Source: Amoebophrya sp. A120 (lineage: Eukaryota; Protista; Dinoflagellata). Taken from it: DNA of 64,000 nt. How positions within the stretch are numbered: the stretch's first letter is position 1; each line of letters starts with the position of its first letter. Where the stretch lies: assembly GCA_905178155.1 (NCBI GenBank), contig CAJINV010000003.1:7611882-7675881 (forward strand), written 5' to 3'. Made by a program: the position numbers and the translations under genes. The notes beneath the pieces are model-generated. The model saw only the letters and a program-made list of their open reading frames with translations. It made no database searches and was not told the DNA's origin. Below, piece by piece: positions 856-56,446 of the stretch.

Positions 856-3382
856 CTACTGGGACACAGTAAGCCCGTCGAGAATCAGCGAGATGTTCCG
901 CACGCCGGTTTTTTCCTCGTCCTCCACTTCGTCGTCTCCGTCGTAGAACGGATCGAACTCTAGCACGTAGCCCAACTGGAGAAACTGGCGAATCAGTTCC
1001 GTCGCTTCCTCTACGTAGCGCCTTCCAGACGTCCCTTCGAAGACTATCTGTTTCGGCCTTGCTTCTGGGCCGTATGTTAAACAGTGCCGGCGCACGCTCC
1101 TCATTATGTCGAAGTCCAGGCCCTCACAGTCTAACTGGAGCAACTCCGGGCGCTGAACGTTGTAGACTGCCAGCAACTGCGTGTAGCTAACCGCAGGGAC
1201 CGTTTTAGAACTCTCGGCGTCCACTATCCCGAGTCGCTGCAACCGCCCGTAGAAGTAGCTGTATCCTGTGTAAAAACGTCCCCACCCCAGAGTCGAGATG
1301 GGGATTTTGCAACATAAACCTAGAACTTTTGGGGGTCACGCATCACAAGTTGCAGTCCGTAGTGTAGTGCAGGTTCGCAAGGCCAGCTGCATCAGAAATC
1401 CATCTGCTCATCCTGGTCACAGCATTACAAATGCCGAAACACGATTGGAAATGCCTTTCATGGGGAAGCGCATTACAAGTGTTCCTGTCATTGCAAATCT
1501 GCATGACAACTCTGGGGTGGCTACGTTTTTACACGGGATAAGCTGGGTCGCTGGTTCACGCTGGCGCAAGCGGTTGCGAGCTGTCCCGTGTGGTAGCAGG
1601 TCCAGCATTTCGCTCGCTGATGGAGAGAGCACGCGCAGCCCGTTCGCCACGACTTTTCCAGTTCCACAATCTTGTCCTTTGGTACGAAGTAGACTGGTAT
1701 GCATTGCAAATCCATCCGGGTCTGGATTATCATGCGAAGCGTGGTCATTCCCCCCGCAAGGATCTCTATTGAGAGAGTTACAACAATAAAAGCATTTGAA
1801 GTAAACTACCTAAGAATACCTAAAGCAAAAATTATACTACGCTAGGAAAAATAGATCCTGGTTTGAAAGCATGAATTTTCGTGCTTTGGAACTTGCTATC
1901 GTGAGTGCAATTCTGGAAGTGGATATTTAGGGCTTGAGCGAGAAGAAGGAGAGGGCAGTTGTGTGCAGAGAGGCAAATAAGCATGACAGATTTGCAGAAT
2001 AGAAGAGGAGGTTAGGAGGAAGAAGAAAGAAAAGGTTAGGAGGAAGAAGGAACGAGCAGAGCACTTCATAACTTTTGCGTTCTTGTGGTCTGCTGGTGAT
2101 GAACGTCTTCACCAACGCCTTAAGCGCCGGCCTAAACCTGCCGTTTGCCTACGGGAAGCAGACCGATCATGATCCGCGGCTCCAGCCTCGCGCAACCCTG
2201 CAGGAAAAGACACCGGTGGGCGCAGGCGCAGCTAGCTTTTCTCACTGCGCTCAATCTCTCATCATGAATTTAAATTAATGGTTAGAGCTAGAGCTAGAAC
2301 AGGACACAGCGTATCTTTATGCCTGATCTTCGGCATTTTTCGCACATATTAATTGGGATAGGATGCATTTTACCACGTGGAGCCATGTGCTGCATTTTGA
2401 ATTCGTTAATACATTTTTCTGAGTTTGTCATGCAAAAGATTCATATTGCATAAAGCGTCACTCTATCTGGACCCAGACAGATCCGCAGAGGATAACTGTG
2501 GCGGGCTTGGAATATTTCTCCAACGCCACGACATACGAAGCTTCGTGATCCGTGGCCGAACACTGCGGCGCTTTTTCCGTCTTGCCTGTCGGCAGACTGC
2601 CGGGCTGCTCTCCCCGCCGGTCTTCCTCTGCCGGCGACGCCTCGTGTACGTCCCGCCCCCGCGGAACCCCAACCATCGCCACATTGGCCAGGTTGAGGTT
2701 GCTATGCTGCGGTAGTTCCTGCAGGACCCAAGGGATCACGTCAACCGCCAGCCCATAGATATTCTCAGCCGGCTCCCGCATCCACCTGTGCCACTTTTTG
2801 TAGTAGTGATAGTTTCCAGCTTATCGTGAGAAAAAGTCTTACAGTTACACATTGTGTTGCGGGACAAGCTCAAGCAACAGAGATAAAACCTTTGTCATGT
2901 CGAAAATGCTTGCGATGCTCGTTCTGTGAAAGCTTTTTTTCGTGATTTCCGCATTACGCGTTTTCTTTGTCATGCAGGACAGCACTCACTGTGTTGCTGA
3001 AGCTGCAGCAAGTGTGTCACCGTAAAACTTTTTCCTTATCCTTGCATAAAGTGCTGCACGAAGAAAAGGACCCGTCTGCCAACGGAAACACCGCGTGGCT
3101 GATGGTGTTGTAGTTGCTCGTCCCTATTTCGCAGAAGTGGATCACTCGGCGCGGGCTCCCTGGCGACGGTTGATACTCCGTTGACAAAAAACGAGTCAGC
3201 TCGCACTCCTCCGCAGAACTTAGGGGCTCCATCCATGGTTTTTGCCCTGCGTCCCGTCGCAACCGCTTGGCATCAGGTACCGCTTCAGAACTCCCACCAT
3301 CGCTAAGGACTTTCGAAAGATGATTCTCCGGCGGGCTGCTTCGACGCTTTCCCGTCGGTGATGCTTCCGGCACATCAGTCAT
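856..3382 (-). CDS. FkbM-family SAM-dependent methyltransferase-like protein, multi-exon
   Basis: Motifs are spread over the exons: FCEIGTSNYNT (motif I-like), GLAVDVIP...NVAMV, and PELLQLDCEGLDFDIM...QIVFE (KxDxEG-like). Removing element 1262-1540 plus one TSD joins NQRPS|YFYGRLQRL. The middle intron boundaries (about 1765-2470) are uncertain. Confidence 0.65.
1262..1540. mobile_element. Introner/MITE family A (279 bp), TSD AGCTG
   Basis: TIR tatcctgtgtaaaaacgt...acgtttttacacgggata; agctg at 1257-1261 and 1541-1545; frame restored on removal. Confidence 0.95.
2822..3042. mobile_element. Decayed introner-like intron, compatible with GC-AG splicing
   Basis: Inner inverted repeat gaaaaagtcttacagttacaca vs reverse-complement gaaaaagttttacggtgacaca; left end tatc; TSD decayed; removing the element plus 5 nt keeps frame. 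Confidence 0.55.
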
Positions 3383-5503: not shown

Positions 5504-8500
5504 TCACGCAGCAACCCGCTCAAACTTAAGCTTGGCCCAAAATTCCGGAGTCGCAAGCTCCGACTTTTTCAAATATTCCACGAACCGAGCGTTGACTCTG
5601 GTCCGCTCGCATACTTGTTTCAGCGTGCGCTGGATAGAGGGCTCGTCCCGATCCTTGAAGAAGGCCTCCGTTTGCTCGGCGCGCTCAAATGTGCTACCAC
5701 TGCAGGACACAGACACCACGTGCTGCAGAAGCGAACCTGATGGTTTGCGAATCCTCACTTGTAGCTAGCATAAGGAGCACTTGGCGTGACACCGCAGAAA
5801 AAAAATGAAGAACAAGAACATGTGCGTAACCCTGACATAACAACTGTGGACCTCAAACAAGAGGTCATGCAGCAAAACACAAATAGAGCATAAAAAGTAC
5901 TGTTTGCGCTCGCGATTCTTTTTTTGATCGTGTCGTAATTTTCTCGCATCCAATCAAAGATGAGCACATTTCCAGGCTTGCCCGACCCTGAGACGCCGGT
6001 CATCGGATAGAAGAAGTCCTGGATCTTGATATCATAGGTTTCCTGCAACGTCTTTCTCTTGTACTCCACGTTTTCCACGTAACCGAGGGCGGCGTAGATT
6101 GCGAGCCGATGCGCTTGTTGCGTTTGCGGGTCCTTCATGATCTGCACAAGCTGCTCCCATACCTCGACGCATCGCTCTTTGTTTTGCAGCATGACGGTAA
6201 ACACGCTGCGCTTGTAATCGTCTGGCAGAAGCCCAGTCTTGCGATCCTGAACGAATGCCTCGTACCTTCGTGCCGCCTCCGCTTGCACCGCCGGATCCGA
6301 AGGCGCAAACCTTCATGTAGTTCTACTTCTTTCGGAAGGTGTAATTCCATTTTGCTTTTTTTGTCTACGCGAGGCTTTTTCGCATTGATTTTCTCGTCAT
6401 AAAGTAATAAACTATTCCTCGAAACAAAGAGAAATCCATGTAGCAAAAAAGCCGCACGCCTCGCACAAACCGAAACGACTAAAAAAACGACCAGACTCTA
6501 AAATGAAATAGTATACGTGGACATGAGTCCGATCAAGACCCCTCGGAGTTGCTTTGTCAGATCGTCATCGGCTTCTTTGTGGTCCCAACCAAGCTCAGCG
6601 CAGGGTCTCTGAATGAGGTCGCTGACGAATTCTTGGAACTTGGTGTAAACACTTGATCCCATTTCTGGCAGCACGCGGTCCAAACCGTCGATCGCGGCTT
6701 TCAAAGCACACCACACGTTGCTGTTGTCCTCCTGGGCAAACCCACGCAGCAGAAAAAAAAGCGCGGTTGGATCTTCCAGGTGTCCCGACCGGCAGAGTTC
6801 CATGGTGTCCTGCAGTACTCCGATCCTGAATTAGCAATGTTTGTGGATTCGACCCTCATGACAATGCCGATTGCACTCGTCACAGAATATTAAGTACCGC
6901 ATGACTTTTAAATTAGTGCTGTGTCCATAGATGTACGAGTGTAAAATGCACTCCTCTTATTTTGCTGCTTCTGAGTTTCATGCAATGATGCTCTGTATCG
7001 TCGTTGCTTCAGGAATGAGTAAGCAAAATGGACTGCTAGCAAAAGTACCGGTCCTCGGCGCAAAGTTCCTTTGATGCGACCGCTTTTGCCAAATCCTCCA
7101 ACAGTGCAGTTCCCTCGTAGAGCACACGCACGGGCACAAATTGCCCCGCATTCACCTTTACCCACCGACTGCCCTGCGGGAGCTTGAAAGTCTGCTGCTT
7201 CTCGTATCCTGCGTAAACACAGGGCCCACGACACCCAGTAGTCACGATGGGGAATCTGCTACACAAATCAGCAAGTTTTGGCTGTCGCGCGTGACACACA
7301 CATGAGAAGTAGTACACAGGCTGCCAGGAAAGACACGTCGTGTTTGGCTAGTGCAGCCGGGTCACGAATCGACTTTCGTAATCATGTGATCTCTAGTAGA
7401 GCTCGAGCATGACAAGTTCGAGTTCCAAGATAGCATTAGAAAATGGGCACTCACGTGGCTGCGCAGGGGAAACATTTCAGGCACGCAGATTGGCATGATA
7501 ACTCTGGGCGGGCGGGGACGTTTCTACACAGGATATCTCGTTAAGAAACTGGATCTCCTCCTGGTAGCCGTTGTTCGTTGCGAGAAGTATTGGCACGGTC
7601 CAGATCTTCTCGTCATCTCCTTCCTGGACCGAGTTATCAGCCAAGTACCACCGCTGGCTCAGCTGGAGCGTGGTTGCGTCAGGCCGAGAAACGGTGAGAA
7701 CCGGGAACCTGCAGCACGAGGAATGGATGCATTTTTTTCGTTCTTTAGCGGATTCAAAATTTCTGAAGTAATGAAGGAGGTTTTAGATAGTAACTGCGCC
7801 AGCAAGGGGGCTGCTCCGAAAGCACATACCTACATTCTCGTGCCAGAATGCCCTTGGCACCTGATACCGACCGCTGCGCCACACTAAAATAGAAAATGCA
7901 CTTGTCTACGTACTCTATTGAGGTACTTTTTTTACCCCATTTGCTCGGTCCAGCCCTTCATGATCTCCGCCACCGGCTTGCCGCTGACCTCCTCCCAGGC
8001 CTTCCAGAGGTCAAAGGTTTGCGTGTTGCCATACTTGTGCCGCTCCATGTACAAGCGCAGCCCCTCCTGAAACTTCTCCTTCCCCAGCGTGGCGAAGATC
8101 ATCCGGCACACGCTCCCGCCCTTGCAGTAGCTGATCGCATCGAAGATCTCGTCCACCTGTTCGGCCTTCGGGATGGGCACCTGGATCGGGTGCGACGACC
8201 GCAAAGAGTCCAATCGCAGCGCCGCCGCCTGGTCGTCGCACACGAAACTTTCCCAGATCCGCCACTCGGGGAACAACGCATCCGCGGAGAAGGTCTGCAT
8301 AAAGTTCGCAAAGCCCTCGTTCAGCCACAAATCATTCCACCACTCCATGGTCACCAGGTTTCCGATATCCCACAGAAAAAAGTTGGCAGGGCATATTTTG
8401 TAATGCAAAAATAAATACACAGAAAGATCTGTCATGGGCGGCCTCATAGCATGCTGCTTAGGATACGCAATACAGTTTTTTTTGTGTATTTATTTTTGCA

Positions 8501-10143
8501 TTACAAATGTGACCTGCCAGCTTTTTTCTGTGGAATATCCGAACCACTGGTGCGCCAGCTCGTGGGTCACCACGCTGGCCACTCGCTGCTTTCGCGCGGT
8601 GGAGGTTTTGGAAACGTCCAGTAGCAAATCAATCTCGCGGTAGGTGACGAAGCCCCAGTTCTCCATCGCGCCCGCGGCGAAGTCGGGGATGGCGGCCATG
8701 TCGCATTTGGGGAGCGGGTAGGCGATCTGGAAAAACTCGTTGTAGAATTCCAGACACCGGGTGGCCACCTCCAGCGAGAACGACAGCTGCTCCGCCTTGC
8801 CCGGCACCGACATGCACCGCACCGTCGTCTTGGGCCCGTGCACGCCCGCGGTTTCTTGCGTCAGGTAGTCCAGTTCCCCGACCAGGAACGCCAGCAAGTA
8901 CGTGCTCATCTTGGGTGAGGTGCCGAACTTGAACGTGACAGTGTTGTCCGCCTCGTTACTGATTTTTGACACCTCCGGCATATTGGAGAACGCCTGGAAC
9001 TTCTTGTCCACAACCATGGTCACGTCGAACACGCTATGCAGAGGCAAACGGGTGGGGTGAAAGAGGAGGCGGCGTAGTCCTACAAAGCCTTGTGTCGGGG
9101 GCAACGCCAGTGGCTGCTACTTTCTCTTATACCGGTAGTCTCCTGCTCCTCTGTAGAAGTTCACCGAAAAATGCGCCTCAAAAGATCCAAGGGTGGTCTG
9201 AGGAAAAAAGTACTTGTTCAGTGCTAGTCAAGAAGTGCGAAAGACGAAGACGCGCGAGAAAGACAAATTGATGTTGATAGCAAAAGTATAATGCATGTCC
9301 GCGTCATTAATGACATAATGATAATCTTTATATTCGTTTCTTCGGTCGTGTCTTCACTATCATGATCTGTTTGTTCAGTAGCAGCTGCACATCTCGAGTG
9401 GCAGCCCAGATTTCGCCCCCGTTTGCATCTACACAATTCGCTTTTCGTGCTGGCTCATCCACGCAGGGAAAGCAGCGGCGCGCGTCGATGGCCTCGAACT
9501 GCGTTACCGCCAAACGCCGTTTCTGTCCAAGCGTGTCCACATAATTTGATTGGTAAAACCCGCACATCTGGTCATTCAAAATACCTAGAATAACAAATCA
9601 AATGAAGATTTGTCGCCAACTCACTACGTACGTCACCACGTGCTGGCAACCTGCGTCTAGCCATACCATAGCAAGAACGAACTGTAGTCAGGCAGTCGAA
9701 ATATTACGCGCTCGGATCATCATGTTGATATTTCAAAAGATACGACGCGCTTTCACGCTGCATCTCCCATTACATTCGCATTCCAAGAAAGCAAAAAGTA
9801 GGAACTATAACGTACCATCGAACTTTGGGATGCACAGCTTCCCGACGGCTTCGCCGACCGGAAGAACGTGGTCCCCAAAAGAAATTACGACGGTCGTTTC
9901 TTTTGGCTTGAAGGTGATGCTCTCGGCCGCCAGTTTTTCTCCCGTTGCCGCGGGCGTGAAAAAGGCATCACTGAAGCAGAGCTCCTTAGCATTCAGGTAC
10001 AGCTCTGAGGTCGCAACCTCCACGTCGTAGGTCACTTCCAGCTTGCCGGAGAATACGCAGCGGTCCAAGTCCGGTCGCAGCTCCAGTTCGTACAAAATAG
10101 GCACGGCATCGTCGGGCAGAATTGCCCGATCGATTTCCGCCAT
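5504..10143 (-). CDS. M1 family aminopeptidase (puromycin-sensitive type) with ERAP1-like C-terminal domain, 9 exons
   Basis: [34 protein letters not shown]|[27 protein letters not shown] and WTEQMGFP motifs. Five GT-AG introns plus elements at 7205, 8366 and 9035. Confidence 0.95.
7205..7535. mobile_element. Introner family A, diverged (331 bp), TSD TCTCG
   Basis: tatcctgcgtaaac...tttctacacaggata; tctcg at 7200-7204 and 7536-7540; removal gives EIQFLNE|KQQTFKL. Confidence 0.9.
8366..8537. mobile_element. Introner with long (about 60 bp) TIRs (172 bp), TSD TCCGA
   Basis: tatcccacagaaaaaagttggcagg...ttgtaatgcaaaaataaatacac is mirrored at the right end; tccga at 8361-8365 and 8538-8542; splits HQWFG|NLV. 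Confidence 0.95.
9035..9435. mobile_element. Decayed introner, compatible with a GA-AG intron (9034-9439)
   Basis: tatgcagaggcaaacggg vs reverse-complement tgtgtagatgcaaacggg (15/18); TSD decayed; removing 406 nt gives PARKA|VFDVT. Confidence 0.65.
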
Positions 10144-17685: not shown

Positions 17686-19072
17686 TTACTTCTTCTTCTT
17701 GTCAGCCGCCACTGGGGCTTTGTTTTTGCGCAACTCCACCGGCACCTGCTTCTTCGCCCGCTTAGCGCAGCACCCGCAGCAGCACACTGTAAAAAAAGCG
17801 GTGAAATGTGTAGTAAAATTTACCGAAGTACGTAGTCGCAACGTAAGTTGCTAGCATAGGAAAAAAAACAATATGGCGCAAGCTTCTTCGGTACTGTAGT
17901 AGGAAAAAAAACAAAAAGGTATAAATCAGAAAACAATATATTAAGATGGAGTACCGAAGCAGAACATCTTGAGCATGTAGCCGAAGACGAAGTAGCAGAG
18001 GAAGAGGGAAACCAGGAGGAGGTCCAAAAACCCGATGCCGGAGAGCTTGCCCGCGTACTGGGGATAATGCTTCTCGAACGCATCGAGAAATTGCTGCACC
18101 AGGCGGAAGGGCTGGGAGGACTCCACGAGGGCGACCACGGGCTTGAGCTTCGCCTGGGTATTGACAGGAAAAATCCCCCCCCCCCATATTGAAAAGGTAT
18201 GCTTCCAAGTATTTGTATTGCGGATTTGAGGTCACAAATCACGTCTGTCTTGCAAGAAGACAAGGGCAGAAGCTTCCGCCCCATTATGGAAGCGGTTTGT
18301 CATGCTGTTGGGCCTAAAGGGGGGCCGTTTGCCATGCTGAACTACTAGACCCATACGCCCCTACCTAGCCCGGGGATCTGGCCGCAGTGCCTCTCTGCAA
18401 TACAAAGCTGATTTGTGGTCACAAATCAGCATCACAAATTTCCGTTTTGATATGGGGAGGGGGGATTTTTCATTTTGATACTGGGTGACGGATACCATCT
18501 CCGACAGGGGGGGAATTCCATTCTTCAATCGGAAGGACTCCGCCTCGCCCTTCACGAGATCCATCTTTTCCACTGCCAAATCATATTTCTCGAGCACCTG
18601 ATCTTTCACGTTCGGCGGGAGCTTGGAGAAAGCCAGCGTGGTGCCCGTTTCCGCCGTGAAAAACAACAAGTCCTTGGTCATCAGTACCTGCCGAAAAAAA
18701 ATTATAACAACATCCCGTGCAAAAATTCTGCGACAAAAGAAGCTCTTTTCTGTAAAAAAATGTTGACTTCGGCTTGACATGTTGACTAAGCAGCTCAGCT
18801 CCTTCGAGGGAGGACTCACAACAAATCTGCTGGATGAAAGGGGACAGCAGCATCTCATGCGCAGGACATGGTAAACGGAGCCGCACTACAAAAAAAAAAT
18901 AATCGTGATCCCCCATGAATGCAGCTTTTTGCTATATTTATACCGAGTTCGAGACGAAGTCGTAAGTGCCGGATGCAGTAAGGAGGGGTTCGGCCTTTGA
19001 TTTCTTCTCGGCTGCAGCGACAGAAGCAGCGGCAGCAGTAAAGGCCGCGGTACGAAGAACAGACTTCATCAT
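17686..19072 (-). CDS. Hypothetical type I membrane protein with signal peptide and C-terminal di-lysine (DKKKK) ER-retrieval motif
   Basis: N-terminal MMKSVLRTAAFTAAAASVAAA; TM segment FLDLLLVSLFLCYFVFGYML; reconstructed tail RAKKQVPVELRKNKAPVAADKKKK*. The 3' introns are tentative. Confidence 0.55.
18159..18480. mobile_element. Introner family D (322 bp), TSD CTGGG
   Basis: tattgacaggaaaaatccccc...catat / atatggggaggggggatttttcattttgata; ctggg at 18154-18158 and 18481-18485; removal gives VSVTQ|AKLKP. The right part is nearly identical to the 54616 copy. Confidence 0.92.
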
Positions 19073-42400: not shown

Positions 42401-45400
42401 CTCCTCGAAGTGCTCCAAAAACTCCTGCTTGTTTTGCTCGCGGTTTTTACGGTACAGCGAGATTTCGGAGTTGAACTCGTCCGCGATCTCCACGGCACTG
42501 TAGATCGCGAAGAAGGTCAACGCGTTGTGCAACTTGAGGTTCAGGCAGACGCTGCGGTACACGCCCGGGTGGTTCTCCTCCTCGATCTTGTCTAGGCCGT
42601 GGAACCGCGCATTGTGCTGGTTCGCGGCCGCACCCCCGCCGCCGGTGCTGTCGAGCAGGCTGCCCAGGTTGCGGGGCAGCAACCGTTTCAAGAACGTGGA
42701 CTTCTGCTCTAAGATGTCCTCCCGCGCCAGCGCGTAGTTTCCCAGGTCGGGGTACTGGTGCGGCGACGCCCAGGTTAGCAGCCCCTTCTCGCGCAGAAAC
42801 CGATTGTACACCACGTCCAACGAAAGCCGCTTTGTGGAGGCCACGTCCTTAGTCGCGAGGGAGCTGCTCAGATTGCAAACCGGCAAGTCCGCCGCGCGAG
42901 CATACGACAGCTGGCCCTGCCACCACTCGTGCCGCTGCTTCACGACTCGCGCGAACCGCTGGATCGCCCAAGCCGGAAACGCAGCGTTGTCGGCCGGGAA
43001 AAATCCGTCCTTCGCTCCCCAGTCGCTCATGGCCACCGGTGATTTGCGCAGAATCGGGAGCTGCTTGATCACGCGAGAAACACCCGCACCTGAGGTCTGC
43101 GGTGCACCCCCGTGGGGCAAGAAGTTTGCCGTCGTACTATGATCCCCACCTCCCGCCGCGAACAGCCCGCCGTCGCCCCCACCGGTACTACTGCAGCCAT
43201 CCGCCTGCTGCCCCGCCGCACCCTGGGCGCCGGACACGTAGTTGCCCACCCCCCGCAGCTCCTTCAACCCAACGTTGGAGTTGAGCACGTAAATCAGGTC
43301 GCCTGCCAGATCCCGAATCTGGGACAAAATGGAATCCGCCTCCTGCTGCAGCTCCTCCCAGTCGCGCACCAGCACCACTTTGGACTCGAGTCGCTCGAGG
43401 AGCTCCTCGTGGCACACCCCGTCGTTGACCAGGTACTTCTGATGCAACGGGAGCACCCGGTAGTACAGGTCGCTCTCTAGCTGCTCCACGTCCACGTCGA
43501 TCCCCGGCGAGGGGCCGGCCAAGACCAGGGAGCAGTGGTTCATGCAGGGGACATACAGCCCGAATACGCACCGCTGCTGGCTCGCCGGGCTCGCGACCGA
43601 CGCATTTGCACTTTTCTCCACAGCGATGTGCAAGAAGGCGTGGCGCGCCAGGCTCTTCTCGAACACCGCGCTGCCAGAGTCGACGGCGGAGAGCAGACCC
43701 GACTCAAGAGAAATATCGTCTTCCGCGGTGGTTGTCCCGCCCGAGCCGCCCGCGCTGGTGAAGATGTTTAGGTCGGAAAACTTCAGCCGCAGCGTCTTTT
43801 TCTGCGCCACGGTTAGCCGGTCGCCGCGCACGGACACGCGGCTGCCACACAGCGACAGAAACTTCAGCAGCAGCGGCTCCTCCGCCTCGTACACCTGCGG
43901 GGTGTTCGCGGTCGTTCCCCCAACTGTGCTGACGCCCATCATTCCACCAGATGCGTGCCCGGTGTCCGCCAGGAGGGACAGCACGTTCTGCTCCAGCTTC
44001 TTGGTTTGGTACTCCGACTCGTTTACGAGAGTCTCCACGATCAGGGACTCGCCCGTCTGCTCATCCTTGAAGGGCTGGTTGCGGGGCGGCCGAACCTTCA
44101 CGGTGCGCGTGTTCCGGGTCTTGGACAGCGGCAGCAACTGCGTGTAGCTGTCCGCGTGCAGAATCTCCTCCTCCTTGCGGATCACGTTGCGATGCTGGTC
44201 CAGAAAGTGCCACTTCACTTTAACGTAGGGTCTCCACGTCGACCTTTGCTTGTTCGGCTGCTGGAGGACAGTCTTGTTCTCGTTCAGAACCACCTCCTTG
44301 ATTTTCCCCTCCCGCGTCAGCGCCGTGGCCTTCCCGCCCGCCGCGTCGTCGTCGTCCTCTGGCTCGTCCACGACGGCAGGTCTTATTTGTTGCGCACGAT
44401 CTTGGCGCTGCCGCATCATGTCCAGCACGCTCTGGTTGTTCTCCGGCGCCTGCTTCGCGGCCGCTTTCGCCCGGGGGGCGCCGTGGTTGACCTCCTGCCG
44501 CAGGTAGTCCAGCGGCACCACTGCGTCCCCGACGGCGGCGTCCTGTAGCCGCAGCGGATTCTGCACGTCCTCGTTTTGCTTCTCGGCGACGCCGAACCGC
44601 ATCAGCCGCTTCATCTCCACCTCGGCCCGGAACAAACCGTGCTCGGGGCTGCTGGTCACACACCACACCGAGAGGACGCCGACGTTCGCCACGCCAGCGA
44701 GCCAGGACAGCGGGATCACCTGCACCGCGCCGTCCATTACAAACTTCACACGGATCTGCGGTCGCTGCTGCGGGTTCTGGTTCACGAACGGCAGCACGGA
44801 GGCCTTGTGGGACTCCCAACTGGGCTGCTGCTCGGGTGGTTCGTGGTTCTGGTGCAGCAAACCTCCACTCCCATACTCGCCGGCCGTCGGAGCTTCGTCC
44901 CGCAGACACCAAATCTCGTCGCCGACGCGAAGCTCGTTGCCCTGCCGCTCCTCCGCCGTTTCCACCGCGACGATCCGCCAGTTACCTGCCCGGATGCGCA
45001 TTTTGTTCCAGTACTCCTCGTCCTTCTTGTCGACTTTCACCTGCTTCAGAGCCTCCTTTGGGTCCTCTATGATCCCGAGATTCTTCAGCGTAGCAGCGTG
45101 CGCAAATTTCGAACCTGGGTAGCGGTTTGCGAGAATCGCGCTCTGGTCTGTGGATCATTTAGATTTAGACAAGAAATGAGTATTTTATATTTTTGCAAGT
45201 ACAAAACATGAAGGGTGTAAGTAGTCTCTTTTGTACGCAGTGCCCCCACCGATCCCTGCACTTCCGCCCCGAAGATCTCGTCCACGGTAACGTCCTCGAG
45301 TGACTTCGGGATGAAGCGCTTTTGCACGTTGGTCATCTTCACCCGCTTTTTCGCCAACTCGAAGCCGTCCTCCATATCACCCAGCGCGGTCCGCGTGCCG

Positions 45401-48400
45401 CGTTTCAACGGGGCGGCGGCCCCCGAGATGGGATCTTTGTCGTCCAGCATGAGCTCAAACATGGTTCCCTGCACGTGGGCGTCGTTCCACTTCTTCTGGA
45501 TCTTCTGCAGCCACTGCGGCAACGGAATCCGCGGAACCGGGTTGCCGTACCGCTGCATCACGGCCGGGATGCATATGATTTTCAGGATGGACGCGCCCAG
45601 CCGCTCCTTGTAGTACCCCCAATCGATGATGTCCCGCATGTCGGTAGAAACCAGATTTTTATCGTTCAGCCACTCCTTCAGATACGTGCGCTTCAGCGAG
45701 TCCTCCAAGTTGAACACCTTCATGGGAATCGCGCGCTCCGTCACCTTCGCGCCCACTGGCTTCCGGGCAATTACCAAATGGCACGTAAGCTTCTCGTCAT
45801 CCAGAATCTGCGGACCGAGGATGTACGCCAACCGCTTCGCGCAACAAATCTGAGTTTTTGCGTTCGATTATCCTTCAAGAACTACATCGTGATCATTCGT
45901 GATAGATATTAGAGAAAGCAGCAGTTCCGCGTTTGTTCAGAAAGTGCAAGAAAACGACCACACGTATGAACGTGTTTGTTTACTCATGGAAGAACTACAA
46001 TGCATGATGATGATGATGATGGTGGCCGAGATGAATGTTGATGATGCTATCGAAAAAAATACCTGCACGGATTTCTGGCCGTCCGCTGTGTCGTTGACGG
46101 ACTTCGACATGGATTTGGTTTCGGATACGAGAAAGGTGATATCGTCGTCCGTGAGAGAGGCCCCGCGGCTATCCAGCACGTCCACCCAGCGATCCGCGAT
46201 GCGGCCCAGCTCCTGGTAGACTTCTGGCCGGGAGGAGCCTTTGAGGAAGGCGCCAGATCTGAAGATTTCATCTTGGAACACCTGAATCATTTTTAACTCG
46301 CCGCGGCGCTTCACCTCAAAGCCCTTCAGCTCCGCGATGCTGCCGTCGTCCTCCCAGACACAGCATCAACTGCAAAAATGTCTGGGTCTGGAAGATTGCA
46401 ACTTGTCATGCTGTTTTTGGACTCTAAAAAATTTTGTATTCGATGACCAGCAAGGGGGGCGCCGTTTGTGCTACACGGACAGGGCATTTCTCATGCGGAA
46501 GGTGCATCAGGAAGCCCTCTAAATGTCTGCGATGCTAGGTCATGCATTACAGGCATCATGGTTCATGAGAAATATGCATGACAGATCTTGCATTCTTCCA
46601 GACCCAGACATTTTTGCATTTCATACACAGTACCTTTTTTTCAGCATCTTGTCCTCGTCCGTGGAGGCAGGCAGGATCATGCAGCGATAGGGCCCGTCGA
46701 CCTCGAACAGGATACTGTTTTCCTTGGACACTTTCCACTCCGTGGCCTTCACGATCTGCGATTTGTTCTTCCCATCCGCGTTGTTCGCGGCCAGAATCTC
46801 CTTCTTTTGCTCCTCGGTGAGGTTCTCCTGGGCCTCCCCGGTTTTCTTGTCCACAAACACCTCCGTGCCGTTCTGGTATTGATGGTTGGCGTACTTTTGG
46901 TCCACCCGCAGATTCAGCACCGAGTTCGGGTACGTCATTTTTAGCTCCTTCCCGGCCTTGGTCTTGAACTTGAACGTGTCAGGGAAGCTTTTCGGGATCA
47001 TGCATGTTATAAGAGTGCCAGGATCTTCGAACTTTTCAAGGTTAAAAAAGTGGCTTTGCCTGGTTTAGGTAGTAGTACTCGTATTGTACTATTATTGTGT
47101 AAGTACGCATGTCGTCTGATTTGACGCATCTTCAGCGAGCGCAGTTTTGAACTACTACAGCCAGCTAGCTTAGCAGGTCGAGTGAATACATTTGGTCAAT
47201 TAATTTCGACGCATGTTCTTTTGCCCTGTCTAGCTTTTTCATTCAACTGTGAAAGTTTCGAAGATCCTGGCGGTTGCATACACCAAATCCCGTCCGTGTC
47301 CAACTCGATGGGCAGCCCTACGCGGTCCACAAACTCGCGCGCCTCGCGAATCAGGTTACTGCCCGTGAAAGTGGTGATCCCCGCCATCTCCATGCTGTGC
47401 CACCTCGCGCCCGTGCGCATCACGTACCCGTAGAAACTGTTCAAGATGCACTTGTGCGCCAGCTGCAGCGAATCGTAGAGCAAGCAGCGGTCGTTGGCCT
47501 CCATGATCTTCACCGGGTCGCCGGACTCAATCGCTTTCTCCTTCTTCTTGCCCTATCCTGTGGCAAAACATCCCCAATTCTGCATGCTCAGCGTGTTTCT
47601 CATGCGGAGCCCCATGAGAAGCGTTTTCTACTCGTGCCTTGGAATTTGTAATGGTGCGCCAATCAGAGTAATAGGCTAGTAGATCTGTGACGCTGCTGAA
47701 CAAGCTAAACACGATTGCACTACGAGGCCACGTTTGTCATGCGCAACAACCTAAGCTGGCTGATTTGTCTAGCAAATCTCCCATCTTGACTATGGAGTGG
47801 GGAAGTTTTTACACATGATATGCCCCACTCCTTGTTCTTCCGCTTGTACACGTACCGCCGGTCGCGGAAGTTGCGGACCGTGTCCACATAGAAACTGTTT
47901 TCCCGTTGGCACACAATATCGACCTTGTCCTCGTAAAGCGAGTTCTTCAACCGCTTGTACACTTTCTGACTGTACGCGCGCGCGGCTGCGATGGTTTCCT
48001 TCGCCTGGTGTTGAGCGATGATTTTTATTTTTCCGCGTTGTGGTCACTAACTGAAGAACGACTGGAAACGCGAAAAAAAAATCGACAAATTTATTGGATT
48101 CTCGAAACAAGCGAAAAAAAAAATAAAGTGCTGTTCATTTAGCAAGCACGAAGTTGATCCGTAGTTGCCCTTCATCACAAGAACAGCTGATTGCCGCACA
48201 AAATGGAGCCCCAGTTTTTATTCCAACTAAAGAGTTTTAATACCTGTTCGGCTTCTGTGAGCTCCTTCCATGGCACGCGGGTGAGCTCTCCCTTCTCACG
48301 GTGGTTGTACTTGTTCTGAGGTTCGGCCAACTTGTGCACCAAGTTCCGCACCTCGCCCTTGGAGGTCTGGAAGAGCTCGTACCGACACTTCCACTCCATT

Positions 48401-51400
48401 TTCCGCTGGCAGTTGTTCGCGGGGTCGTTGTAGGAGCACGACTGGCAGAATTCGGGGGACACCATGGCGCTCGGTTGCAAGCGATTCGACAAAATGATGT
48501 TCGGATACATCGTATGAGAGTGCACAACTCGTCCCCCTGCCCCTCATTTGAAGTGCTTGAGCGGCAACACAAGCAACGGCAGAGATGGATCATGGGCCTT
48601 CCGCATGACAAATCTCCTGCACACGGATTCTATAGTGCTGTTGGAGCTCCCGAAATTTGCACTGCGGACAGAGCTTAGAGCAAGTGCGTGGATTTGCCTT
48701 TTTGCATTTTTACAAATGAGGGGGACCAGGTGGGGTTATGCACTCTCATACATCGCCCCGACATCGAGATGGTAGATCAGCGGGTTGTCGTTCAAAACCA
48801 CCCGCTTCGCTCGCTTTTTGATGGTTTTCCCGCCCTGCTTCACCCCCGCCGTGCCCTCGACCTCTTCCCACTCCACGACCTCGAGCTCGTACGGCATCTC
48901 TTGCTGCATGGCCGCGTCCGTCGGCGTCAGCCCCTCGCCCGCCGGCGTGTACGCCGAGCGCAGGACGCCGAACTTCTCCTTTTCGTAGGCGATTTGGCGC
49001 GCCACCTTTTCGGGGTCGCACAGGGACAACAGCTGCTCCTTCAAAAGGGCCACCTGCTCGTCGAAGTTCGCGACATCCTCGATCTTCGTGTTCTCCTCCT
49101 GTTTATGGATTGCAAAAATATCTGGGTCTGGAAGATTGCACCTTGTAATGCTGTCTTTGGATTCCTAAAAAATCTGTATTGCATGACCAGCAACAGGACT
49201 CCAGTTTGTGTTACGCGTATCGTATCGTTTTGACATTTGACTCCTGTCAGGGTGGCGTTAGAACAGATTTAGCCTCTGCCAATACCGTGGCGTTAGAACA
49301 GATTTAGCCTCTGCCAATACCCTAGGTGGACACCCGTTCCACGCGGAGAGAGCGGAAGGGCATTTCTCATGCGGAGTAGGCATTAGGAAGACGTCTAAAA
49401 ATCTGTGTTGCTAGATCATGCATTAGAGGCATCAATCATCATACAAAATATGCATGACGAGTCTGCATTCTTCCAGACCCAGACACTTTTGCATTTGATA
49501 CTGTTCGCAGAAGAACTTGCAGGTGTCGTACGCCTCGTTCAGCAGCACCTGGAAGGCCGCCGGGTCCAGGCGGAACCGCTCCGGGATGTCCTTGCGGAAC
49601 ACCCCCACCCGCATGCACTCCACGCGCGCCCCCTCGTAGGTCTTCTGCTCGATCAACCGCGAAGTCCCCTTGTGATACTCGATTGCCTGGTCCTCGTGCT
49701 TGTTGGGAAACACCACGTTGCACCGGAACGCCTCGCGCATCAGCAACGACTCGCACAGCGTGCCCGACCCCTTGCGCAGCACGTCGTCGGGGGGAAAGGG
49801 GATGATGGAGCACAGCGCGAAGAGAATGTGCCAGCGTCAGCAGTTGGAAATCGACAGAATGGCTTTTTAAGCTAAAGCGAGCGAACCTAAAAACGCACCC
49901 CATAGGGCACCTTTCGATGCAAGCAATGCCACAGCACACGGAGCGTCTATGTTGTTTGCACTGAAGGAGGCAACTGAGGCAGAATGTAAAAAACCTGACG
50001 AATCTCATGGACGGGGCTGCTGAGAAGCCTGACTGACGCCCTCGGCGTTGCTCTAAACAGCTTGACACTCTCGGCGTCTGGAAAATGTGTAGTCGTGCGC
50101 CGCTTTAGAAAATGTGGATCCAAGGACTACAATGGGTAACAAGTAGAAGTACCATCGATTTTATACATCACAAATCATTTTTTCCGCCTTGCGGACTTCC
50201 AGCGTGACGCACTCCCATAGATGAAGTCGTGGATGTACTTCATGAAGAGGTAGTAGGTGGCAAGCGCATCGGACACGGAGTACTCCGCCATTTCCTGGGG
50301 CCGCTCCTGGCAGTAGGGCGTCATCAGCTCCGGGTCCACCTCCACTGGGTCGTACTTGAGTTTGTATTTGGTCACCGCCTTCAGGCCGCGACTCCCCATC
50401 GGCAGGTAGGAGTCTCGCTGCACCCAGGCGTAGCAGTCCAGATGCACGATCCACTTACCGGTGAAGAACCCCTGCCGCTGCAGCGCGATGCCCACCTCCT
50501 TGTACATGATCGTGGACCAGCCCGGCTGCTCCGGGCCGGTGTACTCGCCCAGCAGGATGTCCGCGCGGGTGCGGACAAAGCCGAAATCGAAGAAGTCCCC
50601 GTTGAACGTGGAGATCACGTGGGGCCCGATCTCCCGGATCAGCTCGAAGAACTTTAGTAGGGTCGCCTTCTCGTTGGGTTCGTTGTAGATTTTGAAGTAC
50701 CCCTCGTACTCCGGCTTCGGCGTGTACTCGAAGTCCGTGATGTCCTCCGAGACGATCTCGCGGTTGACGATGAGAAACCCTAACCCGTCGGCCATGATAT
50801 CAAATGCAAATATGTCTGGGTATAAAATTTGTATTGCATGAGCAGCAAAGAAAATGCAACTTTTCCTACGCGGAGAGGGCATTTGTCACGCGGAATAGGC
50901 ATCGAGAAGCCTTCAAAAAATCTGTGATGCTAGGGCATGCATCACAGACATTATGGCTGCTCATGCAAAACGCGCATGACAAGTCTCAGAATCTTCCTGA
51001 CCCAGACATATTTGCAATTCATACATGAGCGAGATCAGCGAAATGCTGTCCTTCTCCGCGTCGGGAAACTTCAACGGCTCCTATCAACTGCAAATATGTC
51101 TGGGTCTGGAAACTTGTAATGCTGTGTTGGGAATAGTGAATGCTCTGTGATGCACAGCCAAGCATGAGAAATATCTGCGCTTCTTTATGTTGCGTTTTTC
51201 GCATGACAAACTGCGTTTTTGCATGACAGGCAAAAGGGTCTCTTCTTGAACACGCATCATAAACTTCTTGGTCGTGCCAGACAAGCATGGCAAATCAAAA
51301 TCTCGCAATCCTCCAAACCCAGACACTTTTGCATTTCATAGCTCCTTGGTACACTCGATGTCGTAGGCCATGATGCGCCACGAGGGCTTGTCGTCGCACT

Positions 51401-53186
51401 CCAGAATGCGGTGCTGGGTGAGCTGGTAGTTCACCTTGTCCTCGTTCTCGTCCTCGTACAGCACCTGCTTCGGGAAGTCGACCTCGTACCACAGGCCGCA
51501 GCGGATGTCCTTGTCGATGGAGATGCGGTTCATGTAACTCACGTCCCACTCGAGCTTGCCGAAGATCCAGTGGTCGATGCGCTCGTCCTGTTTCTTCAGC
51601 AGGTCCAAGCTGTAGATCTTCTCCTCCCGCTATGACAGTGCACAACTCCCCCTCCCCCTCATTTGTGTTGCATGAACAGCAACACAAGCGCTGGCAAAGA
51701 TGCAGCTTTTGCATGACAAATTCCTAGGGGATTGTAGTGCTGTTTCGGATTCCGGAATCTGTCATGCAAACCGTACTAACAGTAACAGGCAGAGGGTGGA
51801 CTTGCAATTCTGCATGACAAATGAGGGGGAGGGGGAATTGTGCACTTTCATACCCGCGTGCCGCGGTTCCGCCGCGTCAGCTTCTCGTACTCCGTGACCG
51901 CCTCCAGGCCCTGCTATCGAAATGAAAAATGTATGCCCCCATGTTAATCCCAGAATTTGCAAGTGTGTGTGTTGCATAAATTCCCAGTGGAAAAAATATT
52001 TTCCGCTTTGCTTGTCGTACACAGCATCACAAGTTTTCGAGCCAGAGTAGCAAAAATTTTCGTTGCAAGCCCAGCACGCTCCTGGTTTGTCATGTCGGAA
52101 CTGCTTCGCGCGCCTACAATCTGCATGAGTGACAGTCTTCGTCCAAGCACGCATAGATAAAGAGTTTTGCGCTTGAAAACCTTATGCAACGCAAATATTT
52201 CAAACTTCCAGGGTGGGGGCGGCATTTTGCAATGTGATACCTGACGCAGGTGGTTCTGGTTGTCGAACGTGACCTTTATCAGCTTGCGTTTGCGCCCGAC
52301 CAGGTGGTCCTCCAGCGACAAGTCCTCCTTCTCGACCACCGTCGCGCGACACACCTGCTTCACTCCGGTTTCGCTCGTGCAGAACTGTTCCTGCAACGTC
52401 CCCCGAATCAGCTCCACGATGCGGTCGGGACAGTTCTTCACCAAGCGAACGAGGAAGTAGGGTCGGTACAAGTGTGTCGCGCGAAACGTGCCCCCATCCC
52501 GCCCGATGCAGTACAACAGAAGACCCGCGAGCTCGCGCCCACTCGCCTCCGACCGGTGGATGGTTTCCCGCATGTTGAAGAGGTATCTGGTGGAGAGAAG
52601 AACATTTTTGGAGGCTTTAGCTTATTTTCAAATGCTACACTTCTGGTATTCTGAGACGAGGAGCGCGTCCTAATCTTTAAAATTTTTTTTGATCGATATT
52701 AAGTATTCTTCGAACAACATGGACACCGAGGCTGTCACACCTCCGCGTATAAGTACTTACTGCAGGAGCTCCTTGCTTATGCAAAAAAGTACTACCATGA
52801 TCGCCTAAGAAGCCAAGTACTTACCCCGTCTTTTTCTCGCCACGCTTCATCACGTGGACTCCAAATTTCTTCTCGAGCTCGACATCCTCGTCGCCAGGCT
52901 GTTTCCTTCGCACTTGCTGTGGTGCATTTTCATCGTCGTCGTCAATGAGCCCGTTATCTCCGTCTGCCTCCCCCCCAACGTTTCTTCTCTTTCCCCCGTC
53001 GGCTTTTCCGCCCTTCTTGCCGGCATCCTTTCCCTTGCCCTTTTTGCCCTTCAGTCCACCGCCAACGCCGCCGATGAAATTGGCCCCACTCGGGTTTTTG
53101 CTGTTTCCCTTCCCTTTTCCCTTTCCACCCTTCGTGACGTATCGGCCATTGACGACCGCGACTTTTTGGTTCGTCGGACCCCCCAT
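39476..53186 (-). CDS. POLE: DNA polymerase epsilon catalytic subunit A (about 3150 aa, 17 exons)
   Basis: Exo[16 protein letters not shown], Exo[10 protein letters not shown], ExoIII YSVSDA; polymerase motifs [36 protein letters not shown] and [13 protein letters not shown]; CysX CQSC...C...CQREN; C-terminal CysA (CPGC...CVAC) and CysB (CGNC...CIYC). Confidence 0.97.
40557..40835. mobile_element. Introner family A (279 bp), TSD ACTCC, opposite orientation to the 1262 copy
   Basis: tatcctgtgtaaaaacgtcccca...tggggacgtttttacacaggata (perfect 23-bp TIR); actcc at 40552-40556 and 40836-40840; removal gives LEE|FLNQD. Confidence 0.96.
40878..41143. mobile_element. Introner family B (266 bp), TSD TTCAG
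   Basis: tatcacctgtaaaaatgtctgggtctggaaga...tcttccagacgcagacatttttacgtttggta; ttcag on both sides; removal gives HLVAE|TIEED. Confidence 0.93.
46364..46625. mobile_element. Introner family B (262 bp), TSD CACAG
   Basis: Family B TIR; cacag at 46359-46363 and 46626-46630; removal gives KKRYC|[15 protein letters not shown]. Confidence 0.95.
47008..47280. mobile_element. Introner with partly decayed ends (273 bp)
   Basis: Inverted pair gccaggatcttcgaa...ttcgaagatcctggc; TAT...ATA termini; TSD catgt/cacca decayed; removing the element plus 5 nt gives DTDGIW|CMIPKSFP. Confidence 0.8.
47554..47820. mobile_element. Introner family A (267 bp), TSD TGCCC
   Basis: tatcctgtggcaaaacatcccca...tggggaagtttttacacatgata; tgccc on both sides; removal gives KEWG|KKKEK. 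Confidence 0.93.
48513..48750. mobile_element. Introner family C (238 bp), TSD CATCG
   Basis: tatgagagtgcacaac...gttatgcactctcata; catcg at 48508-48512 and 48751-48755; splits polymerase motif A DVGAM|YPN. Confidence 0.95.
49104..49500. mobile_element. Introner family B (397 bp) carrying a nested insertion, TSD CTGTT
   Basis: Family B TIR; ctgtt at 49099-49103 and 49501-49505; removal gives FFCEQ|EENTK. Confidence 0.93.
49252..49321. repeat. Perfect 35-bp tandem duplication
   Basis: gtggcgttagaacagatttagcctctgccaatacc occurs twice (49252-49286 and 49287-49321). Confidence 0.97.
49821..50221 (-). other. Non-canonical intron (about 398 nt), probably a decayed introner
   Basis: Required to join KYIHDFI to [20 protein letters not shown]; only a 3-bp aga direct repeat; weak IR (gcgtca...tggaa); no AG at the junction. 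Confidence 0.7.
50798..51023. mobile_element. Introner family B (226 bp, internal deletion), TSD CATGA
   Basis: tatcaaatgcaaatatgtctgggt...acccagacatatttgcaattcata; catga on both sides; removal gives LISLM|ADGLGFL. Confidence 0.95.
51082..51340. mobile_element. Introner family B (259 bp), TSD GCTCC, opposite orientation to the 24080 copy
   Basis: Family B TIR; gctcc at 51077-51081 and 51341-51345; splits ExoI DIECTKE|PLKFPDA. Confidence 0.95.
51631..51852. mobile_element. Introner family C (222 bp), TSD CCCGC
   Basis: tatgacagtgcacaactccccctccccctcatttgt...acaaatgagggggagggggaattgtgcactttcata; cccgc on both sides; removal gives RGTR|EEKIY. Confidence 0.96.
51915..52239. mobile_element. Introner, family D-like (325 bp), TSD CCTGC/CCTGA, spliceable as GT-AG
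   Basis: tatcgaaatgaaaaatg..gccccc / gggggcggcattttgcaatgtgata; the minus strand reads CAG|GTATC...TAGCAG|G; removal gives NHLRQ|GLEAV. Confidence 0.85.
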
Positions 53187-53791: not shown

Positions 53792-56446
53792 TCATCGCGT
53801 AAATGATGTAGTGACTACTAGCAGCCGAGAAGTGGCGCGGCGCATTTGATTTACGTTTCTTTTGAAACCTCCAGTTGCAGTCGAGATTGTGTGGGAGGGA
53901 AGGCCCAGGCCCCGCAGCCTCGTAATTCTAACTGCCATGTGCATGGTTCTCTCCACCTGTAACCAGGAGGAGGGGAGTGACAACAATGTAAGTATTCAGA
54001 TTCACTACAACCAGAGGCTCTTTTCAGAAAGCGTGACCCCGAGGCTGCATGACACCATCATAGAAATTTACTGCGTTTTCGTACATGAGTTTCTCTGCCA
54101 GTTCGCGGTACCGTTCGAGCAGCGTCGTGTTGGCCAGTAACCCTTTCTCCTGTATGGAAAAACTCCAGTGAGCCACCACTGCTCGCCCGAGAGCCGCCGC
54201 GTGCTGATTTCGCCGTTTTGGGTGCTGTGTGGAAAACTCGCCCTCATCGTCAGTGGAAATACCATCCCAGCCTGTCAGCCGTTATTTTCATTCATACGAT
54301 CAGCAAGACACTCATTTTCCTCGCATCCCTGTACTACCCAATCTAGGGCTGTGAACATTGGACTTTGGAAAAACCCCAAAAGAGGAAGAAGAAGAAGTAA
54401 CACAGCCACGCTAACATTCGCGCCCCTTCGCGATCAGTTGTGTCTGCTCTCTCGTCGCGCTACATCAACGCCATGACCATATTAACAACGCACATGATCA
54501 ACGAAGCACAGTTGTTGACGTTGATCTTCATAGAACAATTGCAGAAACAATAAAATCGAGGTATACTAATGTCCGAGAAGTCTTCGTATTTGAAGGCGAA
54601 AAAGTTGATGTTCCATATCAAAGGGAAAAAAGCCCCCACCCCGTATCGGAAGCGGAAGATGCGCGAATTTGTGATGCTGTATTTGAGTACACAAATCAAC
54701 TTGTATTGCTAGAAGGTCAAGAGACGAAGCTGCGGCCTAAATTGTAGGCAATCTGTCATGCTGTTTCCCACTTCCAGTTGCCTCCTGTCATCCTGGAGCT
54801 GCAAGGCTTTCCCACGCTAGACAGCACTACAGTCCGCATCTTTTGCCTTCTAGCATCACAAAGCTGATTTGTGACCACAAATCTGCATCACAGATTTCCG
54901 TTTTGATATGGGGGGGGCATTTTTCATTGCAATATTCCAGTCCACGTGGCGGCTGATTCCGTCTGACATGGTTTCGTAGCCGTGTGCGTGGAGGTATGAG
55001 AGTGCACAACTCCCCCTCCTCCTCATTTGTCATGCGAAATACCTAGTTTACGCCTTGGCTCTTGGCACTGTTTGCATGACAAGTTCTGGCAGCCCAAATA
55101 GCACTCCACTCCTGTCCAAATTTGTCATGCAAAACCTGTATTCTTGCTGACGGTTGTATTGCTGTTCATGCAATACAAATGGGGGGGAGGGGGAGTTGTG
55201 CACTGTCATAGGAAGTCAAAGACCCCAAAGTCTAGCGTGCACAAACTGCCCTCCTCAATGCGGTGCAGCAGCGTCTCGTGCGCCCACGCGGCACAGTCCC
55301 ACCGGCGCCAGATGCAGTCGGAGTAGAACGTATGCTCGATCCGAAACTTCTCGTCAAGCATCACATCCTGCCGAAACGGCCACGCGTGCAGTTTACCGTC
55401 TTCCGGATTCGGTGCCGGCTTCTCTAGCCAGGGGTACTGCGCCAGTTCCTACGGAGCAAATTCATATTGTTTCCCGTCTTGCTGAACATCATCATATAAT
55501 TGTCTTGCTCAAGTAGTGGGATTTCTTCACCGTTTTTTTTTTCCTCGTTTGATATTGTTCATGGGTTTCCTACTTTCCGCAAAAAAACCGCCTTAACCAT
55601 GCCAGTATTGCTATTGGTACATCATGCTGTGAAAACTCGAACGAAAAAAAGACTGGAGTGCACCATTTGAATGTTAGGAACCAAGCTCGCATTTTTTTAT
55701 CAATAAGTATTTTTCAATACCTGGTGCACCGCGGACACGATGCCGTGATTGATCACGTTCGCGGAAACAAACAAAAACCGATCGCGCCGCTTCTCCCGAA
55801 TCAGCTCCGGGATCGCGCCGTCATTGATGAAGACGACGTCGTCGTCTATTTTGACGTAGTAGGCGCCGGGCTCGTCCACCACCTTCCAGATCACGTCCCA
55901 ACCGCCCCCCTCGATCGGGGGAATGAAGTAGGACCGCGGGTTTCGACGTTGCAGTTTGATCAGGTACTGCAAGTCGTTCATATCGTACTTCACCAGCGCC
56001 CACAGGACGCCATCGAGCACCCCTCCGTTCTCACGCAGGTTGCGCTCGAGGTAGGCGTTCAGCAGGTCGACGTAGGCCCGGCGACCGTAGTAGATCAGCG
56101 CGTATATCTTGATGTCTTTTAAGTCGTCGAAAGGGTCGTCCTTCCAGACGCATTCCGGATGGAGAGCGTCGTCGGTCTCCACGCGTCGCATTACGGGCAT
56201 TGCGGCAGCAGGGGGGAGCAACGACCAAGTGCTGGCCGACTGTAGGCAGAGCCAAGAGCCGCTTGCGGTGGTCCCCGCTAGGAGTACTCGTCGAACTAAC
56301 GTAGAGGACGCTTTCATCATCCCGCGAGGCCCTCTTGCTTCAGTCGGCCCCCGCTGCCGCCTGCGCCGCCGACACCATGCCGGCATTCTCATCCTTCCGG
56401 TGCCGATAAGAGGTACCGATACCAACGGCGCTCCCGTCTGAACCAC
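53792..56446 (-). CDS. Uncharacterised GT-A-fold glycosyltransferase-like protein, multi-exon, ends uncertain
   Basis: IYALIYYGRRAYVDLLNAYL...YYVKIDDDVVFI (DxD), VSANVINH, DWNINFFAF and AHWSFSIQEKGL...LLERY; two introners removed in frame. Confidence 0.65.
54616..54934. mobile_element. Introner family D (319 bp), TSD TTCCA
   Basis: tatcaaagggaaaaaagccccc...ggggggcatttttcattgcaata; ttcca at 54611-54615 and 54935-54939; removal gives VDW|NINFF. Confidence 0.92.
54995..55210. mobile_element. Introner family C (216 bp), TSD GGAGG/GGAAG, opposite orientation to the 48513 and 51631 copies
   Basis: tatgagagtgcacaactccccctcc...ggagggggagttgtgcactgtcata; removal gives VFDF|HAHGY. Confidence 0.93.

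Follow-up and report, generated by a model that had tools for sequence, protein, structure and literature searches.

The TAT...ATA elements and the genes that carry them

The 64,000-nt stretch of Amoebophrya sp. A120 DNA analysed here (contig CAJINV010000003.1, positions 7,611,882–7,675,881; hereafter the window) carries on its minus strand the genes for the catalytic subunit of DNA polymerase epsilon (Pol epsilon; approximately 39476–52824, with 11 listed elements), a puromycin-sensitive-type aminopeptidase (P0122; 5507–10143), and a conserved dinoflagellate protein (P0241; 54027–56392), the latter two being labelled Amoebophrya sp. A120 in public data. Exons of these and other minus-strand genes in the window are interrupted by short elements with TAT...ATA ends, a terminal inverted repeat (TIR), and a flanking 5-nt direct repeat. 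Two query exons show 100% identity to proteins that carry the label Amoebophrya sp. A120, and the whole proteins map exon by exon; the TAT...ATA inverted repeat and the 5-bp direct repeats match the description of Farhat et al. 2021 (PMC7789003). The elements are therefore the A120 introner elements already published there. The text of that paper describes an inverted repeat starting with TAT, followed by seven variable bases and AAA, with direct repeats of 3–5 nt and non-canonical borders, and counts 29,850 copies in 1,954 families. Three measurements are added here: the orientation of the elements is unfiltered, their target sequence is unfiltered, and only the UA at the upstream end is held fixed.

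The element catalogue combined self-comparison with a systematic search of the whole window for inverted ends flanked by a 5-nt duplication. This search returned 20 rows in the window and none in two shuffled windows; 18 were kept, and element 7205–7535, which fell below the search threshold, was added from self-comparison and interior alignment, resulting in 19 elements of 151–397 nt (named below by their first position). Rows 1698–2494 and 50926–51173 were dropped, each with one repeat mismatch and a low TIR score; the former is possibly a long element resembling family B, with a weak TIR and perhaps carrying an insertion. The direct repeat is perfect in 17 of the 19 elements and in 182/220 elements of a catalogue built blind to repeats. 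All nine elements named in the original prediction, a reading of the bare sequence, have TAT...ATA-type ends, a TIR, and a 5-nt direct repeat.

A position table of the TIR across 169 copies showed TAT in 98–100% and A at positions 11–13 in 86–95%, with family C carrying CAA at positions 11–13 instead of the A run. The elements display the features of MITEs (miniature inverted-repeat transposable elements), i.e., a TIR, a target duplication of fixed length, short size, absence of coding capacity, and many copies, and they fall into families both in the window and in another assembly. An Rfam search of the window gave no match. We also noted that the TIR is laid out as a three-pair foot, a loose zone, and a long stem: across loci L001–L132 of the other assembly and the window, positions 4–7 pair by Watson–Crick rules in 34–82% of cases, and positions 1–3 and 11–13 in 96–99%. 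An additional 22-nt inverted repeat at 2830–3034 resembles another family's arm, without clear TAT...ATA ends.

After deletion of an element together with one 5-nt repeat copy, a minus-strand reading frame runs uninterrupted for at least 153 nt to either side of the join at 19/19 sites, while every retained element introduces stops in all three minus frames. The claim that all host genes lie on the minus strand thus held at every site by open frames, and by homology for 46364, 47554, 48513, 49104, 50798, 51082, 7205, 8366, 54616, and 54995. For 1262, 18159, 23883, 24080, 30161, 40557, 40878, and 51631, the host strand comes from open frames and a codon model, in which the minus frame ranked top in 8/8 cases. 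Pfam matches were also present in the flanking minus-strand exons at 1262 (weak), 40557, and 40878: the exon beside 1262 (859–1254, minus) shows a weak FkbM-type methyltransferase match (E 3e-4, under the curated cut-off), and the exon following 40557 carries the Pol epsilon zinc finger PF22912. Cumulative GC skew drops steadily over the window (1–64000), consistent with one co-oriented block of minus-strand genes.

The Pol epsilon gene gave a test of exact removal, with six of ten junctions lying in conserved sequence and aligning ungapped to most fungal homologues once the element and 5 nt are deleted. The ungapped fractions of spanning homologues were 101/101 for the family B2 element 46364–46625, 83/99 for the family A element 47554–47820, 89/100 for the family C element 48513–48750, 84/90 and 87/87 for the B2 elements 49104–49500 and 50798–51023, and 85/86 for the B1 element 51082–51340, which lies in the exonuclease region. 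Deleting 3 nt more or fewer reduced the ungapped matches to 0–1 at five of the six. The set includes both B orientations, 50798 and 51082 facing oppositely only 58 nt apart. The site of element 48513 falls within what we take to be polymerase motif A. Element 49104 contains an insertion of ~135 nt, including a tandem duplication of ~30 nt, and its joined junction is still exact; judging from this copy, the interior length and content of the elements seem to be free. The fungal homologues gave no information at the four other junctions, those of the family A element 40557–40835, the B2 element 40878–41143, the family C element 51631–51852, and element 51915–52239.

The aminopeptidase gene contains the diverged family A element 7205–7535 and a short TAT...ATA element at 8366–8537, just past the HEXXH zinc motif; both junctions are present in the public protein P0122 and are collinear with two other Amoebophrya orthologues. 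Likewise, the junctions of the family D element 54616–54934 and the family C element 54995–55210 are present in P0241 and collinear with dinoflagellate-type homologues. Taken together, we infer from the frames, the homologues, and the public A120 protein models that the elements are removed from transcripts. The ordinary GT-AG introns mapped in the host genes have donors starting with GTA in 7/7 cases.

Two further introns in these genes deserve mention. One in the P0122 model (9031–9436, minus) has the single placement TT-GT, without obvious TAT...ATA ends, and could represent either an ancient non-canonical intron or an error in the model. The other, at ~49830–50210 in Pol epsilon, apparently starts with TAT on the sense strand and has a decayed other end; the trial boundaries for this suspected decayed element were wrong, leaving a surplus of 6 residues.

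Orientation of the elements in the window and in a second assembly

Within the window, orientation was determined from the element interiors, trimmed by 45 nt per end so that the TIRs contribute nothing, by local alignment scored against a null model in which 10-nt blocks are preserved (pass at z > 4). In family A, element 1262–1540, which has a perfect direct repeat, is inverted relative to 40557 (score 204 reverse, 28 forward; z 30.9) and 47554 (z 12.2), and 7205 is inverted relative to 47554 (z 15.5) and 40557 (z 4.5); 40557 and 47554 share one direction (z 17.2). Element 24080–24331 of family B1 is inverted relative to 51082 (z 13.8). In family C, 54995 is inverted relative to 51631 (z 18.2) and 48513 (z 11.8), which face the same way (z 10.9). 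The interiors align one way only, with self-symmetry absent except for raised scores in 8366, 18159, and 54616.

These results confirm all the pairs that had been predicted on orientation. The stretch of 35 nt by which the start of 40557 had been likened to the reverse complement of the end of 1262 matches at 32/35 positions, the motif quoted for 24080 and 51082 was found in their alignment, and the inversion of 54995 stands, so that the inverted copies are homologous in all three families (z 4.5–30.9). The grouping within family A needs qualification: 47554 does follow 40557, and 7205 is joined to 1262 only through 47554 and 40557, the direct pair having failed z > 4. Family B, moreover, splits in two, B1 (24080, 51082) and B2 (40878, 46364, 49104, 50798), with 51082 inverted against 24080, 40878, and 50798. 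The remaining elements include a B-like one at 30161–30453, a family D element at 18159–18480 in the same orientation as 54616 (host strand from the minus-strand codon model), and a short TAT...ATA element at 23883–24033.

For a larger sample, a metagenome collection was scanned with a 21-nt TIR word, yielding at least 132 loci; the 80 listed have one accession prefix in common, and 80 were taken with wide flanks, which hold 237 distinct elements of the window's families, a sample biased to young family B copies. Families were assigned by direct comparison to reference copies (graph clustering was discarded, having merged B1 with B2 and left 39/3336 edges inconsistent). The host strand was called with a codon model trained on window exons, which gave the right strand in 91% of 117 held-out 120-nt pieces. 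Across ~230 sites, deleting the element and 5 nt keeps the frame with a mean score of 3.97, versus 0.91–1.01 for frame-shifting deletions; the model settles the frame only, given that deletions of +2, +5, and +8 score alike.

In 128 assigned copies, the orientation against the called host strand was 68:60, i.e., without bias (a further 29 copies had no strand call), with family counts of 9:5 (A), 18:20 (B1), 37:32 (B2), 3:1 (C), and 1:2 (D). Same-family pairs within one locus, a comparison that needs no strand call, were opposite-facing in 11 of 14 cases. A Pfam scan of exon pieces, on the called strand only, matched 13/109, most loci with repeat mismatches having no homologue; at the nine loci with such a match, orientations were 5:5 (B2), 0:3 (B1), and 2:0 (A). 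The two orientation classes have similar junction scores. They also fold the same terminal stem, which pairs ~27–29 of the first 35 bases in families A and B, reached folding z values of −3.2 and −8.3 in two copies, and is equal in both classes and on both strands. As predicted, then, both orientations occur and both must be removed, and the direction of the interior is irrelevant and not filtered.

Loci L001–L132 hold at least four more TAT...ATA families absent from the window (medians 149, 211, 238, and 308 nt), in both orientations (10:14, 5:2, 4:2, and 4:3), with TAT in all and the A run at positions 11–13 in most. Several long copies seem to be nested or to bear insertions (L013:906–1398, L024:1806–2436, L075:765–1461, L078:1492–2058).

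Target sites, cut register, and decay of the terminal bases

The 5-nt duplication leaves six possible cut registers per element, depending on how many repeat bases stay in the upstream exon. Of 187 perfect duplications, at most 8 could have GT/GC-AG borders, 5 of them at register four and 3 at register one, with 0 elsewhere, which weighs against canonical sites peculiar to each orientation. A search of the 187 sites for enrichment of AG or G+1 in every register found none: AG occurs at positions 3–4 in 15/187, compared with a background-like 8–22 at neighbouring positions, and G at position 5 in 54/187. Given that the base composition of the duplication equals that of the flanking exon, the insertion sites are not filtered for splice signals.

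The register itself is bounded by homology only from below. The repeat copies of 54995 have one mismatch, at position 2: the upstream copy gives F, as found in 28 of 30 homologues, with one showing the residue of the other copy and one lacking the region, so that at least two repeat bases belong to the upstream exon. At the Pol epsilon element 47008–47280, which has a decayed direct repeat, a conserved tryptophan requires at least three. Element 51915, with one repeat mismatch, would have GT-AG borders if four repeat bases were kept upstream. Four is also the number placed upstream of the 5′ end in the text of Farhat et al. (PMC7789003), which calls the position of the element border unknown. 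Its Table S4 lists nine predominant non-canonical A120 boundaries, all of them with T at +2; in A25, the predominant borders all begin with TT. At register four, the invariant upstream TA falls at +2/+3, like the host's ordinary GTA donors, a placement that depends on the register. Where the repeat copies differ at position 5, the upstream copy has G in 5/5 cases in one catalogue and in 2/3 in a differently built one. The direction of repeat mismatches gave no result on the register, the substitution spectrum being balanced, and at the mismatch site of locus L057, PDB alignments ended two residues short of the site or gave no match. At positions 1–3 of the repeat (L001–L132), we noted A/T in the upstream copy in 17/22 mismatches and G/C in the downstream copy in 18/22.

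The terminal bases decay unequally. In the window, element 40878 has the third base of its upstream end changed, and 46364 and 30161 have the last base of the downstream end changed (ATG). For a wider count, a decay catalogue was built on arm positions 8–21, admitting at most two changes in termini and duplication together; it comprised 239 copies (2 in the shuffle), 207 of which had a strand call. In these 207, changes were seen at 37/1035 sites of the duplication copies, 3/621 of the upstream TAT (all at the third position; Fisher p = 2e-5 versus the repeat copies), and 9/621 of the downstream ATA. The first two bases showed 0 changes upstream versus 8 downstream (p = 0.008). In the other assembly alone, with fresh strand calls, the count was 0 versus 10 in 207 copies with a margin of at least 3 (p = 0.002), and 1 versus 10 in all 224 copies, with the lone exception having a strand margin of 0.6. 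Mutation with a strand bias does not by itself account for the asymmetry, given that T as well as A is altered at the downstream end on one and the same strand. The two ends are not treated as equivalent, and the simplest explanation for selection on an inserted copy according to the direction of transcription is a requirement at the RNA level.

The original prediction had proposed recognition through symmetric features, namely the terminal hairpin and identical ends presented by both strands. Part of this stood, in that the TIR does present the same ends either way and the interior shows no bias, and part did not, given the directional constraint on the upstream TA. A directional donor is compatible with orientation independence because the TIR gives the same upstream sequence in both orientations. 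Given the 68:60 split, the unfiltered target sequence, and the fixed upstream UA, the element interior is ruled out as carrier of the directional signals needed, and reading of the upstream arm as a donor of the spliceosomal type would be compatible with these data.

Candidate routes of removal and related systems

The reading we favour, and consider probable though far from secure, is random insertion of a TIR transposon and its later removal by a relaxed U2-type spliceosome. This would recognise N-UA in the upstream arm, the hairpin would hold the ends together, and distance would determine the 3′ cut. A TIR transposase acting in trans would insert the elements into exons in either orientation, at sites of any sequence. 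According to the text of Farhat et al. (PMC7789003), no cognate transposase was found in A120, while A120 TIR elements with integrase-like open reading frames are reported in PMC12130899. The UA of whichever arm lies upstream would then be read as the donor; with four repeat bases left in the upstream exon, the intron would read N-UAU...AUA-NNNN and match the host's ordinary GUA donors at +2/+3. Pairing in the terminal stem, whose role in RNA is putative, would bring the intron ends together, with the 3′ cut falling four bases past the stem by distance and not by AG. A bolder proposal, which we advance tentatively, is a splicing route in A120 that needs only U-A at the foot of a long hairpin, on its upstream side, and measures the 3′ cut four bases past the stem, with no G+1, AG, or U1; a conserved A seven bases before this cut may then be the branch point.

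Several points weigh against this reading, in which the catalyst of cutting is the least certain step. The missing enrichment of G+1 and 3′ AG is unlike a normal spliceosome, as is the report that U1 snRNA was not found in A120 (PMC7789003), and a site-specific endonuclease needing the upstream UA could equally be conceived. Register four is suggested by PMC7789003, by 51915, and by the small mismatch hint, with homology giving a lower bound only, and aligner preferences may shape Table S4. A test for selection on the stem at the RNA level, on the sense strand, gave 116 G-U versus 140 A-C mismatches (p = 0.15), i.e., no G-U excess. The two counts of terminal decay draw largely on the same copies, the asymmetry test was settled on once the window's cases had been seen, and outside the window the host strand was called by a codon model with the accuracy given above.

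The strongest competitor keeps the same elements and the directional UA and has them cut by a structure-guided endonuclease and ligase at the hairpin base, a route postulated for euglenids (PMC3935182, in the text covered). The lack of AG or G+1 preference, the undetected U1, and the extensive pairing of the stem in both orientations speak for it; we nevertheless regard it as rather unlikely, given that the constrained bases at +2/+3 equal those of the host's ordinary donor, that the stem shows no G-U excess on the sense strand, and that the A120 spliceosome is nearly complete (U2, U4, U5, U6, and 83/89 spliceosomal proteins reported in PMC7789003).

Recognition by symmetric features only, with interchangeable ends, is improbable. 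It would account for the absence of orientation bias, for stems that are equal in both classes and on both strands, and for the higher conservation of both ends relative to the repeat copies; five last-base changes are A to G, keeping a U-G pair at the stem base. The 0 versus 10 changes at the first two bases argue against it, and so do downstream substitutions that abolish the pair (T to C, T to G, and A to T).

Excision from DNA (as with ciliate internal eliminated sequences), or transcription from element-free alleles, would suit the DNA-transposon anatomy of TIR and target duplication and is very hard to credit, given the presence of the elements in two assemblies, the constraint tied to the transcribed direction, and the 66,565 RNA-supported A120 introns, 65% of them non-canonical, given in the text of PMC7789003. 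Equally remote is the view that each orientation carries its own interior branch point or nearby canonical sites: a YTRAY-like word does occur in the last 70 nt of many copies, partly inside the TIR, but in 0/7 family C copies of either orientation, canonical borders are rarely possible, and at conserved junctions removal must equal the element and 5 nt exactly.

Were the bolder proposal correct, any TAT...ATA transposon would be spliced out cleanly from whatever exonic site it entered, whichever way it faced, and thousands of differing published boundaries would reduce to one rule. The three measurements themselves locate the signals within the terminal repeat and lead to the prediction of a single splice register, testable in existing RNA-seq. 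They also explain how these elements could invade tens of thousands of exonic sites at little cost, and if it is the spliceosome that cuts, it works without G+1, AG, or a detected U1.

Among known systems, the introner-like elements of Polarella glacialis and Aureococcus anophagefferens likewise have a TIR and a target duplication and form introns in either orientation (Roy et al., 10.1101/2020.10.14.339549). In the text covered, they differ in that the element itself supplies the splice sites (GT/GC/GA and AG) or recruits them from the duplication, whereas in A120 no AG or G+1 is selected, and in that their either-orientation classes are biased to one orientation, whereas the A120 copies show no bias. 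The nonconventional introns of euglenids share inverted repeats that pair the ends, direct repeats at the junctions, non-canonical borders, and a proposed MITE origin, with an unknown mechanism (PMC3935182; PMC11282704). They belong to another lineage and have a conserved CAG/CTG at +4 to +6 and −8 to −6, and the text covered mentions no high-copy families in both orientations.

In Fritillaria borealis, MITE-derived introns outside the GT-AG rule are described with a U2-type spliceosome (PMC11282704; PMC13326754, as far as their text was covered). Since a U2-type spliceosome there handles transposon-derived non-canonical introns, this is a precedent for the reading we favour. It differs in preferring AG-AC/AG-AT boundaries and conserving U1, whereas the A120 borders are free apart from +2/+3 and U1 was not found.

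The closest system remains the A120 introner elements of Farhat et al., which share the organism label, inverted repeat, direct repeats, hairpin, variable boundaries, and average size (~240 nt) given in the text of PMC7789003. That text contains no statement on the orientation of the elements ('strand' has 0 matches and 'orientation' refers to genes, as in two of three places in the supplement), and we found none on orientation or a directional terminal constraint of Amoebophrya elements in the texts searched, figures and subscription journals aside. There is no difference in the element itself; the additions are the orientation count of 68:60, target sites without a filter, and a UA constraint that is directional. 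The observation on A120 is a real one, in which unreported properties of a known element make its mechanism testable.

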